From IMG/VR virus record IMGVR_UViG_3300028797_000094, positions 166,524 through 230,523 of that record: DNA of 64,000 nucleotides; one strand, given 5' to 3'. The translations under genes were made by a program, and so were the position numbers. Positions within the stretch are counted from its first letter, which is position 1, and each line of letters opens with the position of its first letter. The notes under the pieces are model-generated. The model did not search any database, had not been told where the DNA came from, and saw nothing but the letters and a program-made list of their open reading frames with translations. Positions 10,542-64,000 of this stretch are shown here, piece by piece. The stretch comes from a virus. Lineage: Duplodnaviria > Heunggongvirae > Uroviricota > Caudoviricetes.

Positions 10542-10573
10542 AAAAATAGAGACAGAATAATCTGTCTCTTTTT
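10541..10573. terminator. Bidirectional intrinsic terminator between convergent genes
   Basis: A tract, then the AGAGACAGA hairpin, then a T tract. Confidence 0.8.
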
Positions 10574-10615: not shown

Positions 10616-12625
10616 TTATTTAATTTCTATATAAGTATTAGGTTTTGTCTTAATTGCGACTACACCGCCGGCAGTTCGACCTTTTGTAATAAAATCTTTA
10701 ACATTAATAAGTTTATTTTTCTTATTGTAAACTGCTTTAATACTTGTTTCATCGTCAACATTTTCACAATAGATAATTTCATCTTTATCATTTACTTTCA
10801 TCACAGGTGCACCTGCAAGTTTTGTTAAACCAAATACAATATTTGCTTCAATTTTCTTTGCAAGACCACATTTTGTAATAAAGAATAAATAATCTTTATC
10901 TTCAAGTCCTGTGAAAATATTTATAATCTTTTCGTTCTTTTCTAAACAATTAAATAAAGTTCCTGATAGATTTTGTTTTACATTTGTATTTAATGTTTTT
11001 TCTTCACATTTATACATTGTGCCTTTATTTGAAATTAAAACAAATCTATCTTTTTTATTTATTTCAATAAACTTAATATCAGTATTATTTAATTTATTTC
11101 TATTAAAGATTTGAGAAGAAATTTTTCTAATTTTGCCTTCATTATCAAGAATAATAATAAATTTTTCTTCTTGTTTTTCTTGTTTTAATGTTTGTTTTTC
11201 TTCTTCTAAGTCAACATCAATAACTTCTGTTCTACGTTCCCAGCCAAACTTTTTAGCAAAATCATTTAATCTTTTTAAGAATTCTTTTTGTTGTAATTCT
11301 TCTGAACTTAAAATTAATTTGCAGTTAATAATTAAGTTATTTAAATCTTTTTGTTCATTAACTAATTCTTGTTGCTCAAGATTTGCAAGTTTTCCAAGTC
11401 TCATATCAATAATTGCTTTAGCTTGGTTTTCTGTAAAAGTAAACTTAGAAATTAATTTTTCTTTTGCAAGCTCAGCAGATTTAGAAGATTTAATTACTTT
11501 AATAACATCATCAATAATAGACAAAGCAGTAAGCAAACCATTAACAATTTCAAGTCTGTTTTCAGCTTTTTCTTTATCAAAAGTATATTCACGAACTAAA
11601 CATTTAATATTATGTTCAACATAAACTTTAATATAATCTTGCAAAGTTAACATTTGTGGAACACCATCAACAAGTGCCATTTGATTTGCATTAAAAACTA
11701 CTTGTAAATCAGTTAATTTGTATAATTTACTTAAAACTAATTTAGGTTCAACTGAACATTCTATCTCAATAAATAAACCATTATCATCAGATTTATTGCA
11801 AATATCTTCAATACCTGTTAAAGTTCCAGCATTAACTAAATCTTTAATTTTTTGAATAAAAGGTTCGGCATAAACTTGATAAGGAAGCTCATAAATGTTA
11901 ATATATTTGCCTAAAATTTCAGTTTTTCCTCTTAAAATTACTTTACCACGACCTGTTTTATAGATTTCAGACAGGTCTTTTTTATTTATAATGATACCAC
12001 CAGTTGGAAAATCAGGATAAATATCAGTGAAAGTAATTTTCTTTTTAGAAATATATTGTTTAACTTTACTTACAAACTCATTTAAGTTGCCAGGTTCCCA
12101 TTCTTGTGCAATAGTATAACCAATTCCTTGACTACCATTAACAAATAATCTTGGAAAAATAGCAGGAAATACTGACGGCCATTCGTCATCTTCTGAAAAA
12201 TTAGGAATCATATCAATTACATTTTTCTTTATGTTTTTAAATAAGCCATCTTCTGCAGCTTTTGATAGACGACATTCAGTATATCTCGAACTTGCTGCTT
12301 CTGGCCCACCTAAAAGTGAACCATTTGCGCCGTGAAAGTCAACTTCAGGAATATTATTTAGCCATTCTTGTGACATACGAACAAGTGCTTCATATGCAGA
12401 ACTATCACCATGTGGCCATAATTCACCAATAACAGCACCTGTAATTTTTGCAGACTTTACATGTGGCTTATCAGCGGTAAATCCTTTTCTAAACATTGTA
12501 TATAGAGCAGCTCTTTGTGCCGGCTTTAATCCATCACGAGCATCTGGAAAGGCACGATTATTATTAACTTCTTGAGCATAAACAAGAAAATCTGTTTTTA
12601 ATTCGTCTAAAATGTTAATTGACAT
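10616..12625 (-). CDS. Type IIA DNA topoisomerase subunit A (GyrA/ParC family)
   Basis: RAFPDARDGLKP, WPHGDSSAY, catalytic AASSRYTE and PDFPTGG motifs; short C-terminal domain. All Trp are TGG. Confidence 0.95.
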   Translation of the reverse strand: MSINILDELKTDFLVYAQEVNNNRAFPDARDGLKPAQRAALYTMFRKGFTADKPHVKSAKITGAVIGELWPHGDSSAYEALVRMSQEWLNNIPEVDFHGANGSLLGGPEAASSRYTECRLSKAAEDGLFKNIKKNVIDMIPNFSEDDEWPSVFPAIFPRLFVNGSQGIGYTIAQEWEPGNLNEFVSKVKQYISKKKITFTDIYPDFPTGGIIINKKDLSEIYKTGRGKVILRGKTEILGKYINIYELPYQVYAEPFIQKIKDLVNAGTLTGIEDICNKSDDNGLFIEIECSVEPKLVLSKLYKLTDLQVVFNANQMALVDGVPQMLTLQDYIKVYVEHNIKCLVREYTFDKEKAENRLEIVNGLLTALSIIDDVIKVIKSSKSAELAKEKLISKFTFTENQAKAIIDMRLGKLANLEQQELVNEQKDLNNLIINCKLILSSEELQQKEFLKRLNDFAKKFGWERRTEVIDVDLEEEKQTLKQEKQEEKFIIILDNEGKIRKISSQIFNRNKLNNTDIKFIEINKKDRFVLISNKGTMYKCEEKTLNTNVKQNLSGTLFNCLEKNEKIINIFTGLEDKDYLFFITKCGLAKKIEANIVFGLTKLAGAPVMKVNDKDEIIYCENVDDETSIKAVYNKKNKLINVKDFITKGRTAGGVVAIKTKPNTYIEIK

Positions 12626-12640
12626 TATTTCCTCCTGTAA

Positions 12641-13396
12641 TTATACTTGTATATTAGGTCATTCATGGCCTAATCAAACATTTCTAAAAGTACTTTTTTT
12701 CAGTCCTATTTGTCTATAAAAAGTCTCATAAACTGTTTGTCAGTTTTCGCCATTTTTTCGTCTCAATCTTATATCTTTTACCATACTTTCATCTAAAATG
12801 GCTCTACCATTCTTAGAACCTTTACAGCCAGTATTATTTTTATGAAAGTTTTTATTTTCTTCTGTATAAACTTCTGGCATTATGTCGCTTCAAGTATGAC
12901 CTTGTCAAATTTTTTTAAAGCCAGATGGACCTATTTTATCTTTATATAGTTCTTCTACCTCATAACGACGCTCATGATTAGCATATCTTGTTCTAATATC
13001 AATAATATCTTCTATAGTTAATTTATGATTTGGATGTTTATCATCTCCGCTAAAACCATCATTATCACCACCATCAGTAATATTATAACCGATATCTCTG
13101 TTTTGGGTATTAAGTTTAGTAATTCAATATTTTTCAAATAAGCCTAAATCTTTTTTATCACATATTTCTATGATAGTAAATTCAAAATTTTCAACACCAT
13201 ATAATTGAAATGCTTTGTATAACGGCTTATTTGGTTCTTTCTTTCAAGAAGACTCTGAACAATGTTGTGCTCATCTTTTTTTAATATTAGTAGATCTGCC
13301 AATATAAAGTTTATTATTTACTAAATTTTTAATTTGGTAAATACCGCAAATTGCTTCTTCTCTAGCATAAGCTTCATGTAATTCTTTGAATGTCAT
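12641..13396 (-). CDS. Free-standing GIY-YIG homing endonuclease, 251 aa (TGA read as Trp; absent from the ORF track)
   Basis: GIYQIKNLVNNKLYIGRS, KR[TGA]AQH, EKY[TGA]I and GYNITDGG, plus two C-terminal repeats ending I[TGA]xGxT[TGA]-like. AAGGAG RBS; about 8 TGA and no TGG; ends in TAA. Confidence 0.9.
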
Positions 13397-13417
13397 TTTA
13401 AAAATCTCCTTAATAAC

Positions 13418-13435
13418 TACATTTAATTTAGCAGA
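13418..13435 (-). promoter_or_regulatory. Putative late-type promoter motif (TCTGCTAAATTAAATG) ahead of the endonuclease
   Basis: Matches the recurrent GCTAAATT motif about 30 nt upstream of the ATG. Confidence 0.5.
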
Positions 13436-13482
13436 TTTTCGGCTGACCCTTTTAAAAACAGTGTCTAGCTGAACTGACAGTA

Positions 13483-15402
13483 TTATTCAATATTAATAGG
13501 TATACTATTAGCATTTGCTAATAGATAGTCGCGTCTTGAATCTATTTTAGTTCCCATAAATATTTCTAATAAATTATCAGTTTCTTCAATATCATTAATT
13601 AGTAATTGGTGCACAGTACGTGTATCAGGTCTTAATAAATATTGAGCTAATTCTTCACTAGAACTTTCGCCTAAACCTTTGTTTCTATTAATTATAAACT
13701 GTTCTTTATGTGTTTTTTTATAATTATTTAAAGCTTTCTGGTCTACTAAATATATATATTCATTCTTTTTTGTTGTAATTCTAAATAGAGGTGGAATTGC
13801 TACATAAATATGACCGTTAATTATTAATTCTGGGCATAGCCACCAAAACATATTTATTAATAATAGTCTAATATCATAGCCATCAGCATCAGCATCAGCT
13901 GCTAAAATAATTTTACCATATCTTAATTTCTTTTCATCATAAATAAGCTTACCTGTTGTTTTATCAATGTCTAACCCAATAGCTTTTACAATATTAGAAA
14001 TTTCTTGATTACCATAAATTTTTTCTACTGCAGCTTTTCTGCAAGACAATACTTTACCTCTAATTGGAAATACCGCTTGAGTTTTACCATCACGCTTAGC
14101 AATAAGACCATTAGCAGCACTATCTCCTTCTGTAATAAATAATTCACATTCATTACGATTTTTAGAATAAGCATCAACTAATTTTGTTGGAAGTGATATA
14201 AATTTTTTATTTTTAGCACCAGTATTTCTGATATTATCTTTGGCTTTTTGTGCGGCTTCACGAGCTTTTCTTGCAGTTAAAGCTTTATTAACAATAGTTT
14301 TAACATCTTTTGGATTATTGTTTAGCCAATCAACAAATTCATTATTAATAACATCATTAATTAAAGTTTTATCTAAGTCAACAATTCTAACTTTTGTTTG
14401 TGAATCATACTTAACATTCTTAGCTTTAACATTAAATGCAAGTACTAAGCCTTCAGAAAGCTCAACTTGAGTTAATGGATCATCATTTTTCTTTAATAGA
14501 CCATTTGCAGAAGCATATCTATTAATTTGACGAGTTAGACCATACTTAACTGCTGCAATATGAGCTCCGGCTTCAGTTAAACCATAATTAACATATGGAA
14601 TAATTGTTTCAGAATAGTCTGAAGTATAAGTCATTGCAATATCAATAAGTTCATTTTCTGTAGATTTCTTAGCAGTAAATCTTTTATTTAAAATTTCTTT
14701 CTTAGAAACTTTCTTATCAAATAAATCTGCAAGTCCATTTTTAGAATGATAAACAAACGTATCATAATTTACAATAAAATTAATAGTTAACTCAGGGCAA
14801 AGAGCAGCAATATCTTCAAAAAGTTTCTTTAATTCATTGATATTTACTCTATAATTTTGAAAGAATTGAGGGTCTGGTTCCCAAATAACTAAAGTTCCTG
14901 AGCCTTCATTATAAGTATCTTTGCCTGTTTCACGAGATTTAAAAATACCATCTTCAAATATTAATTCTTCAAAATTTTTACCGTCAGATGAACGAACTAA
15001 TAATTTTGTAGAAAGGAAATTTGTAAGCTTAGCTCCAATACCATTTAGACCAAGGCTTGCACCGCCATAAACTCCGTCATCATCATACTTACCAGAAGTA
15101 TTAAAACGGTCAAATGCAGCTTGCAAAATAGTTTCGCCATCTTTATCTACATTGATAGGAAAACCTTGTCCATGATCTTGAACAGAACAGTTGCAAACTC
15201 CGTTTTCTTCACAGATACTTACATCTATTTCTTTACCATGACCAATTATATGCTCATCTAAAGCATTAGCAAAAACTTCTTTAACTAATTGAGTAGAATA
15301 CTCATTAGAGCCAAGATAAGTTGCTGGACGAAGCCTAGTAAAGTCTCTTGGACTTAAAGTTTTTATACTATCTTCGGTATATAAAGTTTTGTCTTTCTTC
15401 AT
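13483..15402 (-). CDS. Type IIA DNA topoisomerase subunit B (GyrB/ParE family)
   Basis: RLRPATYLGS, EVFANALDE, GLNGIGAK, EGDSA, PIRGK and ADADADG motifs. Start placed at MKKDK after a GGAGG RBS. Confidence 0.95.
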   Translation of the reverse strand: MKKDKTLYTEDSIKTLSPRDFTRLRPATYLGSNEYSTQLVKEVFANALDEHIIGHGKEIDVSICEENGVCNCSVQDHGQGFPINVDKDGETILQAAFDRFNTSGKYDDDGVYGGASLGLNGIGAKLTNFLSTKLLVRSSDGKNFEELIFEDGIFKSRETGKDTYNEGSGTLVIWEPDPQFFQNYRVNINELKKLFEDIAALCPELTINFIVNYDTFVYHSKNGLADLFDKKVSKKEILNKRFTAKKSTENELIDIAMTYTSDYSETIIPYVNYGLTEAGAHIAAVKYGLTRQINRYASANGLLKKNDDPLTQVELSEGLVLAFNVKAKNVKYDSQTKVRIVDLDKTLINDVINNEFVDWLNNNPKDVKTIVNKALTARKAREAAQKAKDNIRNTGAKNKKFISLPTKLVDAYSKNRNECELFITEGDSAANGLIAKRDGKTQAVFPIRGKVLSCRKAAVEKIYGNQEISNIVKAIGLDIDKTTGKLIYDEKKLRYGKIILAADADADGYDIRLLLINMFWWLCPELIINGHIYVAIPPLFRITTKKNEYIYLVDQKALNNYKKTHKEQFIINRNKGLGESSSEELAQYLLRPDTRTVHQLLINDIEETDNLLEIFMGTKIDSRRDYLLANANSIPINIE

Positions 15403-15425
15403 AGATACCTCCATCTATTCATATT

Positions 15426-15577
15426 ATTATACAATAAATTTAAATATTTTTTCAGAAAAATTTTTTAAACAAAAATATTGTATAATATATTAGTATAATA
15501 ATAAATATATAATATAAATCTATAATTATAAATATTTTAATTTATTTAGTATTTTTTAGTATTTATTATTGTATAAT
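15426..15577. promoter_or_regulatory. Divergent promoter region with three TTGTATAAT copies (15426-15434 minus; 15478 and 15569 plus)
   Basis: Perfect TATAAT boxes in an extremely AT-rich intergenic gap between divergent operons. Confidence 0.75.
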
Positions 15578-55380: not shown

Positions 55381-55439
55381 CTTTAAAAATTTATCTTAAA
55401 AAATTCGCTAAATTTAGTGTAAGAAAATTTAATATTTAA

Positions 55440-55510
55440 ATTCTTGTGGGCAAACTATTGGAAACGATAGGACGCAAAGCTATAGGGCCTTAAATGGTAG
55501 CCAGTTGCTT
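55440..55510 (+). ncRNA. c-di-GMP-I (GEMM) riboswitch aptamer 1
   Basis: GGCAAA-CTATTG-GAAA-CGATAG-GACGCAAAGCTAT-AGGGCCT..GGTAGC-CAGTTGC: P2 with a GAAA loop, the GACGCAAAG junction and P3. Confidence 0.9.
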
Positions 55511-55530
55511 AATTAGGTAGCTGGTTTTTT
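55500..55530 (+). terminator. Riboswitch 1 expression-platform terminator
   Basis: GCCAGTTGCTTA/TAGGTAGCTGGT stem plus T tract; overlaps the 3' end of the aptamer. Confidence 0.8.
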
Positions 55531-55547
55531 ATTTTGCTCCTAATTAA

Positions 55548-55624
55548 AATCCATAAGGCAAAACACAGGAAACTGTGTGACGCAAAGCTATAGGACCTGA
55601 GATAAATATGGTAGCCAGTTGCAT
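55548..55624 (+). ncRNA. c-di-GMP-I (GEMM) riboswitch aptamer 2
   Basis: GGCAAA-ACACAG-GAAA-CTGTGT-GACGCAAAGCTAT-AGGACCT..GGTAGC-CAGTTGC; P2 covaries with aptamer 1. Confidence 0.9.
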
Positions 55625-55653
55625 TATAGAGATATTTTGCAATTGGCTTTTTT
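55614..55653 (+). terminator. Riboswitch 2 expression-platform terminator
   Basis: GCCAGTTGCA/TGCAATTGGC stem plus T tract; overlaps the 3' end of the aptamer. Confidence 0.8.
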
Positions 55654-63112: not shown

Positions 63113-63290
63113 AAATTAATAAAGAGTATTATTTTTGAAACAAATTGTCGTTGAATGAATGACAAATAAACAAAACATTCAATAATTCCTCCTAAATGCT
63201 AATATTTCATATTTAATTCCTCCTGTTTGAAATATAAGTGACGGCAGTTTCTTCAAAAAAAATTTGCAAAATTTATTGTATAATATATAT

Positions 63291-63365
63291 AGGGGTTTCG
63301 GTAAGTGGTTATGCCAGGAGTCTTCAAAACTTCTATCGTGGGTTCGAATCCTACAACCCCTGCCA
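63291..63365 (+). tRNA. tRNA-Trp with UCA anticodon (opal-decoding), CCA encoded
   Basis: Acceptor stem AGGGGTT/AACCCCT, discriminator G, CCA end. Anticodon stem GGAGT/ACTTC with loop CT-TCA-AA (63324-63326). T arm GTGGG-TTCGAAT-CCTAC; short variable loop. Confidence 0.92.
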
Positions 63366-63376
63366 TTTAATAAATT

Positions 63377-63409
63377 GCCAGTTTAATTTTTTATTAAATT
63401 GGCTTTTTT
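63377..63409 (+). terminator. Intrinsic terminator after the tRNA
   Basis: GCCAGTTTAAT/ATTAAATTGGC stem plus T tract. Confidence 0.8.
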
Positions 63410-63465
63410 AATTTTAAAATATTATAAAAAATATTGTATAATATATAGTAGATGAGGTATTTAAT

Positions 63466-64000
63466 ATGAGTTATATTGAAACAAAAACTATTCCTGTCCT
63501 AGTATTTGATGAGAAGCCAGTTTTACCAGGTAGTAGAATACACTTAGTAACTTCAAGTCAATTTTTCAAGGACTGTTATACAGTTTCACAAGAGCAATAT
63601 AATTGCGAAGTTGGTTTATTGTTTAGAACACCAATGACAAGTGAAATTAAATCAGCAGGAGTATTTGGCTATTTTAGAAATGTTACTTTTGTTGATGATG
63701 AAAATATAACATTTGATCTTGAAATAGAAAAGAGATTGGAATTAGTTGAATTTGGAAGTGCTGCTTCCGCAGATAATCCAAATGTTAATTGCCAAACTGC
63801 AAATGTTAATATCTATAATGATGATAGTGAAAATCTTAGTCCAGAAGATGATGCAGTATTTATGTATATCAGAAAGAAAGCTAAGAAATTTCAAAATCAT
63901 ATTTTTAAAGACCCTCTTGCAGTTCAACAATATATAAATATTGATAATAGAAAATCGTTACTATGTGATTTAATTGCAGCTAATTTAACAACTATTCAAG
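63466..64000 (+). CDS. 3'-truncated protein resembling the Lon protease N-terminal domain
   Basis: GAGG RBS; IPVLVFDEKPVLPGSRIHL resembles the Lon start LPxLPLRxxVxFPG; open to the window edge; TTGTATAAT at 63434. Confidence 0.45.
   Translation, partial: MSYIETKTIPVLVFDEKPVLPGSRIHLVTSSQFFKDCYTVSQEQYNCEVGLLFRTPMTSEIKSAGVFGYFRNVTFVDDENITFDLEIEKRLELVEFGSAASADNPNVNCQTANVNIYNDDSENLSPEDDAVFMYIRKKAKKFQNHIFKDPLAVQQYINIDNRKSLLCDLIAANLTTIQ

Follow-up and report, generated by a model that had tools for sequence, protein, structure and literature searches.

The topoisomerase locus and the endonuclease gene

The stretch of DNA analysed here (the window; 64,000 nucleotides) comprises bases 166524–230523 of a 237,392 bp IMG/VR virus record, which has a GC content of 29% and is complete according to CheckV. 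The source is a jumbo phage of the rumen or gut. In the window, a gene for a GIY-YIG homing endonuclease stands between two topoisomerase II subunit genes. The features of this locus are the following (window coordinates):

10548..10569, no strand assigned: predicted bidirectional terminator-like hairpin that closes the topoisomerase operon
10616..12625, minus strand: GyrA/ParC-like topoisomerase II subunit (gyrA), 669 aa, 5 TGG, 0 TGA
12636..13503, minus strand: inserted cassette of about 870 bp, approximate extent from a junction comparison with the related contig L081
12641..13396, minus strand: free-standing GIY-YIG homing endonuclease gene, 251 aa, 8 TGA as Trp, 0 TGG
13397..13482, minus strand: spacer from the gyrB stop to the endonuclease start, 86 nt, carrying the L motif
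13406..13411, minus strand: endonuclease Shine-Dalgarno sequence AAGGAG, 9 nt ahead of the ATG, read from the sequence
13424..13433, minus strand: core TGCTAAATTA of the L-class promoter-like motif, with the endonuclease ATG 27 nt downstream
13483..15414, minus strand: GyrB-like topoisomerase II subunit (gyrB), 643 aa, uninterrupted, 4 TGG, 0 TGA
13674|13673, minus strand: empty intron insertion site in gyrB, at T|TA of Leu581, motif KG|LGE
15425..15433, minus strand: extended -10 type motif of the M class, TGTATAATA, located 19 nt ahead of gyrB and conserved before gyrB in L081

Under the standard code (table 11), positions 12641–13396 of the minus strand yielded nothing but fragments of 41–46 aa. 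The gene is therefore missed by standard ORF calls, as the original prediction had it. With TGA read as Trp, the same positions gave a single ORF of 251 aa, having no in-frame TAA or TAG. The predicted composition of about eight TGA codons and no TGG turned out to be exactly eight and none, the TGA codons being numbers 42, 51, 91, 164, 169, 219, 241, and 246. The short stub predicted for translation without suppression was also found, although its length is 41 aa and not the 42 aa originally given, since the stop falls at codon 42.

The product matched the Pfam GIY-YIG family (PF01541, E = 1.1e-15), and its residues 18–251 matched PHROG 7168, annotated as 'homing endonuclease'. The catalytic domain aligned with that of T4 I-TevI (PDB 1MK0, E = 2.5e-11), with R41 and E88 placed on I-TevI R27 and E75. 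An alignment with 18 homologues showed invariant GIY18–20, YIG31–33, R41, E88, and N105, and strong conservation of residues 110–251 inside the family. The domain profile search detected no named DNA-binding domain in this C-terminal part, and the PDB matches did not extend beyond residue 109, leaving the DNA-binding domain of I-TevI unmatched. Judged from its sequence, the ORF was confirmed to be intact and to encode an I-TevI-type GIY-YIG homing endonuclease. The enzyme is presumably active.

TGA as a tryptophan codon

The alignment with the GIY-YIG homologues placed Trp at the TGA sites. Five of the eight TGAs (W91, W164, W169, W241, and W246) occupy invariant or near-invariant Trp columns among the 18 homologues, and the remaining three sit in variable columns in which Trp is frequent. 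I-TevI, the enzyme of a standard-code phage, has Trp at the positions aligned with W42 and W91. When all relatives were considered, Trp-majority columns held 27 of the 31 TGA codons. A candidate decoder of these codons is encoded in the window, together with an upstream motif:

63277..63285 (genome 229800), plus strand: M-class motif TGTATAATA of tRNA(UCA), starting 14 nt upstream of the tRNA 5' end
63291..63365, plus strand: tRNA with anticodon UCA and a Trp-like acceptor end

The acceptor end of tRNA(UCA) matches that of the phage's own tRNA-Trp(CCA) (5' AGG and 3' CCUGCCA with G73); the anticodon loops are CUUCAAA and CUCCAAA, respectively. A TrpRS gene with no in-frame TGA is located 2.5 kb downstream of tRNA(UCA) (TIGR00233, 317 bits, cut-off 177), and its product probably helps to charge this tRNA. 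Between the two sits a full-length Lon protease gene (TIGR00763, 809 bits) with its own M motif upstream. This code-change module, consisting of tRNA(UCA), Lon, and TrpRS, is free of TGA and covers window positions 63277–63999 and beyond (genome 229800–233430). To ascribe a role to Lon between the suppressor tRNA and TrpRS, such as an action on host RF2, would be pure speculation. RF1 was not found in the phage genome.

Genome-wide, 454 in-frame TGA codons were counted in genes that are otherwise intact. At the sequence level, these data establish that TGA stands for Trp in this phage. The early genes, being free of TGA, and the tRNA and TrpRS encoded by the phage itself suggest a host with the standard code.

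The eight breaks of the frame under the standard code could also be taken for inactivating nonsense mutations in a decaying pseudogene that makes no protein. Random decay is difficult to reconcile, however, with a frame in which all eight stops are TGA, with no TAA, TAG, or frameshift. It also fails to account for five stops on invariant or near-invariant Trp columns, or for the conservation of the catalytic residues and of the full length. The abundance of in-frame TGA in intact genes and the presence of tRNA(UCA) speak against it as well. The evidence from the Trp columns, tRNA(UCA), and TrpRS led us to rule out the pseudogene reading, which we consider scarcely credible.

Insertion between gyrB and gyrA

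Both flanking topoisomerase genes proved to be TGG-only, as had been claimed for them. Together they contain nine TGG and no TGA codons, versus eight TGA and no TGG in the endonuclease gene (Fisher exact p = 4.1e-5). The description of the endonuclease gene as inserted is justified, because in two close relatives, L081 and L082, gyrB is followed at once by gyrA and the endonuclease is absent. L081, a 223-kb contig, has GyrB and GyrA proteins 80% and 87% identical to those of the window and a gyrB–gyrA spacer of 1 nt. The corresponding values for L082 are 63%, 60%, and 35 nt. The neighbouring genes are TGA-rich in both.

The former gyrA ribosome-binding site GGAGGAAA is kept directly downstream of the endonuclease stop (12635–12628), whereas in L081 the gyrA ribosome-binding site GGAGGAAAA lies within the last gyrB codons. 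As GGAGGAAA follows the endonuclease stop and the gyrB tail differs from that of L081, we estimated the insert at about 870 bp; the cassette gives gyrB a new 6-codon tail and stop. With relatives of only about 80% identity for comparison, its boundaries can be placed only approximately. At the start of the 86-nt spacer, a weak hairpin precedes a U5 run, and these elements after gyrB might already limit read-through. No similarity was found between the spacer and the intron sequences of the relatives described below.

The flanks of the insertion were also compared. GyrB identity to L081 drops to 20–57% in the last approximately 120 residues, and the same region is variable relative to L082 too, so a co-conversion signature in the flanks is ambiguous. 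GyrA residues 41–80 (window ~12386–12505) are 50% identical to L081 and 87% identical to the otherwise more distant L082. This mosaic adjoins the insertion site used at residue 73 in other phages, which suggests past gene conversion.

Within the endonuclease ORF, a sigma-70-like TTGACA-18-CATAAT (12879–12908, minus strand; 11/12 matches) was observed 254 nt upstream of gyrA. Its -35 hexamer is formed by the TGA codon of W164 (ATT TGA CAA). The site could be a promoter for the displaced gyrA, as in T4 segG/gene 32, or alternatively a chance match in AT-rich DNA.

Promoter-like motif classes and TGA use

Three motif classes were recognised among upstream regions genome-wide. They are listed with the TGA/TGG counts of the first downstream genes:

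Class E: TTTACA-N17-TATAAT with an upstream palindrome; host-type; precedes small ORFs; TGA/TGG 3/30
Class M: TTGTATAATA(ATAT); extended -10 type; precedes TGG-only genes; TGA/TGG 14/68
Class L: TTTGCTAAATTA; precedes TGA-rich genes; TGA/TGG 121/46

The L core GCTAAATTA has 41 copies, mostly 10–88 nt ahead of a start codon; 36 of them are on the plus strand, where nearly all genes lie. In the window, TGCTAAATTA is present in six copies as compared with 1.1 expected, and none of 100 shuffles reached six. The TTGTATAATA motif, and not the L motif, marks gyrB, the replication genes, and the suppressor tRNA. The TGA users include the head maturation protease and tail sheath genes, and the TGA-free genes encode DNA polymerase A, DnaB helicase, primase, the sliding clamp, RecA, thymidylate synthase (ThyA), and NrdD. 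All 112 ORFs of at least 100 aa that lack in-frame TGA end in TAA or TAG.

TGA use follows the expression class and not the map position, because the motif classes differ in their TGA/TGG counts. This agrees with the original prediction, which had also assigned a late-type motif to the endonuclease itself: TGCTAAATTA, directly upstream of the gene, belongs to the class that precedes the TGA-rich structural genes. The position of the motifs and the gene content suggest that they are promoters with early, middle, and late timing.

The codon bias of the endonuclease gene could have arisen by passive drift. In this case, the late-class promoter came first, TGG codons then changed neutrally to TGA in a genome of 29% GC, and TGA adds no control. 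The TGA share over the other TGA-using ORFs is 77%, and four of these ORFs, with 5–6 Trp codons each, are TGA-only as well. The eight of eight in the endonuclease cannot be distinguished from that share (P = 0.12). The drift reading is further favoured by the same M-class motif standing upstream of tRNA(UCA) and gyrB.

Other genes of the genome also depart from the usage of their surroundings. Two isolated ORFs with TGA/TGG counts of 7/1 (genome 135144–135800; L077:15144–15800) and 9/2 (genome 138172–138996; L077:18172–18996) flank the TGG-only nrdD gene. Each has a perfect L motif upstream, and neither matched Pfam or PHROG; they add to the cases in which late-class genes lie inside an early module. 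The major head protein gene (genome 33682–35001; L072:13682–15001) has four TGG and no TGA codons inside a TGA-rich late block, perhaps owing to very high expression.

A second GIY-YIG protein (genome 110740–111402; L076:10740–11402) has a predicted transmembrane N-terminus and is not a typical homing endonuclease. Its gene follows an E-type promoter and uses TGG only, so not every nuclease of the phage is gated. HNH and HNH_3 profile searches revealed no further clear homing endonuclease in the genome. Elsewhere in the window, two c-di-GMP-I riboswitch aptamers (65 and 61 bits) stand in tandem at 55439–55626 on the plus strand.

Relatives of the endonuclease and the gyrB intron

A scan of IMG/VR yielded 65 loci with relatives of the endonuclease, nearly all between GyrB and GyrA homologues. 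The family is present at the topoisomerase locus in about 60 other phages, mostly inside a group-I-like intron of gyrB. At most loci, the GyrB frame is interrupted within the conserved KGLGEM motif, exactly after KG, and picks up again about 1.0 kb further on. In the window, gyrB is continuous through KGLGE, and the endonuclease is not inside an intron. Conserved intron elements were not found anywhere in the source genome, nor were intron remnants around the window endonuclease.

In the relatives, the exon ends in U and the insert in G. Pairing of the insert's 5' end with the exon end gives a P1 helix whose splice-site pair is G-U. The ORF-deleted alignment of 23 intron copies displayed compensatory changes in 30 of 61 pairs. 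Rfam gave no group I intron match for these inserts at gathering or E-value thresholds. By its splice-site conventions and covariation, the interruption of about 1.0 kb fits a group I intron that bears the endonuclease.

Free-standing copies were found between gyrB and gyrA at three distant loci (L058, L060, and L061), as in the window. In the maximum-likelihood tree, which was midpoint-rooted, the window protein grouped with the intron-borne L050 and L004 (support 97/94), and the other free-standing copies formed a separate clade. Most likely, the window copy stems from the intron-borne lineage and settled as a free-standing gene 280 bp downstream of the intron site.

The terminal branch of the window protein is long (0.65), and the nearest sampled relative is just 61–70% identical to it; for the closest protein relatives, P0002–P0005, identity is 60–70%. 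The metagenome scan gave no relative closer than 55%, and a blastn search of the locus against GenBank phages returned no matches. The long branch and the distance of the sampled relatives would be in line with a recent arrival from another code-4 phage or organism, the codon usage of the donor being retained, and homing endonuclease genes do move horizontally. The gene's own GC content of 28.0%, however, equals that of the genome, and the cassette bears the L motif of the resident genome. The closest copies on the tree, L050 and L004, are standard-code and use TGG. In addition, the endonuclease of every lineage uses the recoded codon of that lineage, whether TAG or TGA. On these grounds, a code-4 donor was rejected, and we regard a donor signature as very improbable.

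The endonuclease is polymorphic for presence at this locus, being absent in L081 and L082 and represented by family members in the roughly 60 other phages. Such polymorphism among the closest relatives is the pattern of a selfish element. It argues against a domesticated nuclease which is not purely selfish and serves the phage, for example, in marker exclusion at the topoisomerase locus or in self-repression. Both functions have precedents in T4, with marker exclusion by free-standing endonucleases and autorepression by I-TevI (PMC2988022). The family has also remained at this locus in phages that are very divergent. Even so, we find domestication improbable.

The topoisomerase genes of the relatives contain additional insertions of 1–1.4 kb, near GyrB residues 430, 454, and 515 and GyrA residues 73, 104, and 164 (loci L003, L004, L013, L019, L043, L049, L050, L051, and L066). 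Several of these hold additional GIY-YIG homologues, which makes the locus a mobile-element hotspot. The intron-bearing relatives also share three conserved segments about 100 nt before the endonuclease start (e.g., L012:5900–6000), namely AGATAATCTC, GATTATCTCC, and GGAGATAAT. The middle segment, GATTATCTCC, can pair alternatively with AGATAATCTC or with the ribosome-binding site. This arrangement resembles a switch by which the intron copies could sequester the ribosome-binding site.

Recoding contrast across the family

For the comparison of codon usage, the loci were dereplicated at 95% endonuclease identity, resulting in 21 recoded clusters (17 TAG and 4 TGA). The counts, which are not phylogenetically independent, were as follows:

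TAG-recoded loci (17 clusters): endonuclease 64 TAG / 126 CAA+CAG; topoisomerase exons 1 / 457; Fisher p = 6e-37
TGA-recoded loci (4 clusters): endonuclease 25 TGA / 3 TGG; topoisomerase exons 0 / 35; Fisher p = 1e-14

A recoded endonuclease thus stands beside unrecoded topoisomerase exons in TAG- and TGA-recoded lineages alike. The TAG codons of the relatives occupy polar columns that are variable and usually include Gln. The recoding states are scattered over the endonuclease tree, and therefore each copy took on the code of its resident genome. Such scatter is what passive drift would give if the copies simply adapted to their residence; the TGA share of 25/28 in the TGA-type relatives points the other way.

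We tentatively put forward a wider reading, to which we assign slightly less than an even chance. Homing endonucleases nested in early genes would generally be locked by recoded stops, a solution reached convergently in TAG-to-Gln and TGA-to-Trp lineages. The family would switch between intron-borne and free-standing forms, and the window copy would have escaped recently from the gyrB intron and would still target the empty site 280 bp away.

Proposed mechanism

For the window itself, we consider it likely that, in a TGA-recoded jumbo phage, a free-standing I-TevI-type GIY-YIG cassette was inserted between the gyrB-like and gyrA-like genes, and that its expression is confined to late infection by transcription class together with codon choice. 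The cassette would comprise the promoter-like motif, the ribosome-binding site, and the ORF, placed between the formerly abutting gyrB and gyrA. On a transcript started at the gyrB M-class promoter, a ribosome initiating at the endonuclease site would halt at codon 42 unless UGA is suppressed. The resulting 41-aa stub would end ahead of the catalytic residues Glu88 and Asn105. Transcripts from the L motif would arise with those of the structural genes, by which time tRNA(UCA) should be established, and would provide the full enzyme as well as gyrA.

Since all eight Trp codons are UGA, the full-length enzyme can be expected only when tRNA(UCA) reads UGA as Trp. With TGCTAAATTA placing the cassette in the structural-gene class in addition to its UGA codons, the production of the endonuclease is probably late-only and controlled in two layers. 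A hairpin was also predicted, in which AAAAUCU, upstream of the motif and partly overlapping it, pairs with AGAUUUU at the ribosome-binding site. This hairpin is weak, the whole fold being no better than shuffles (z = -0.75).

In relatives without the endonuclease, the gyrB–gyrA region would contain the target of the enzyme. The free-standing endonucleases of T4 cut hundreds of bp away from their genes, and this makes the surroundings of the empty gyrB intron site, 280 bp upstream, the likeliest candidate.

Recoding as a safety catch on a toxic nuclease is plausible. Because tRNA(UCA) shares its M class with gyrB, suppression may already exist when the operon is transcribed, and the period of the TGA block may be short. 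The passive drift reading has to contend with the position of the endonuclease on any read-through transcript of a TGA-free operon, where the stop at codon 42 must matter until suppression becomes efficient. Furthermore, the intron endonuclease of the Agate phages is preferentially TGA-coded relative to other genes (p = 1.3e-3; Borges et al., bioRxiv 10.1101/2021.08.26.457843). On balance, we hold drift to be unlikely, at odds that still command attention. With the present data, selection for the lock cannot be separated from neutral drift after late-class expression.

The locus shows that codon reassignment follows the expression class gene by gene and not by genome block, with one TGA-only late-class gene inside a TGA-free operon. 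The pattern is repeated in dozens of phages under two different reassignments, and it supports the published model that recoding times translation. Annotators should be warned that a block-wise assignment of the code misses such genes. The locus is also suited to studying the movement of homing endonucleases between introns and intergenic sites.

Comparison with known systems

The safety-catch idea is not new, because Borges et al. (bioRxiv 10.1101/2021.08.26.457843; later Nature Microbiology) stated it for TGA-recoded Agate phages. These carry a group I intron endonuclease in an early gene; this endonuclease prefers TGA over TGG, and the in-frame stops should hold it back until late. The two systems share a homing endonuclease nested among early genes of a TGA-to-Trp phage, a preference for TGA, and a proposed late-only logic. 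They differ in that the Agate endonuclease is intron-borne in a genome of about 127 kb, whereas the window gene is free-standing, with an uninterrupted gyrB and its own L motif, in a genome of 237 kb. The TGA-recoded intron copies L031 and L046–L048 may belong to the Agate endonuclease family.

With the principle already in the literature, the gain lies in breadth and in a new architecture, and no new mechanism is claimed. The free-standing arrangement with its own late-class motif beside an intron-less host gene is new, as are the three motif classes that link TGA use to transcription class. So is the contrast that recurs at one locus in TAG- and TGA-recoded lineages, of which no description was found in the literature searched.

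I-TevI, encoded in the td intron of T4 (PDB 1MK0, 1LN0), is made only late, through a late promoter inside an early unit and a ribosome-binding-site hairpin on the read-through RNA (PMC2988022). It resembles the window gene in the residues of the GIY-YIG motif. Its late promoter directly upstream, within an earlier unit, has a candidate counterpart in the L motif of the window gene, whose class and position would fit such a role. The block on read-through translation is the hairpin in I-TevI and, as we propose, the eight UGA codons in the window gene. I-TevI is intron-encoded, and the window gene is free-standing.

The latter arrangement is shared by T4 mobA, which also occupies a type II topoisomerase locus (between genes 60 and 39). 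Unlike the window gene, mobA encodes an HNH enzyme, interrupts a subunit gene, lacks its own promoter, and is written in the standard code. The free-standing seg/mob endonucleases of T4 cut hundreds of bp from their own gene, a process termed 'intronless homing' (PMC2988022), and the window enzyme would be expected to cut at a similar distance from its insertion.

F-CphI of cyanophage S-PM2 is a free-standing endonuclease that targets an intron insertion site (PMC6083498). Like the window gene, it adjoins a gene that has a group I intron in related genomes. The window differs in that its enzyme comes from the same protein family as the intron-borne copies and its neighbour gene is intron-less.
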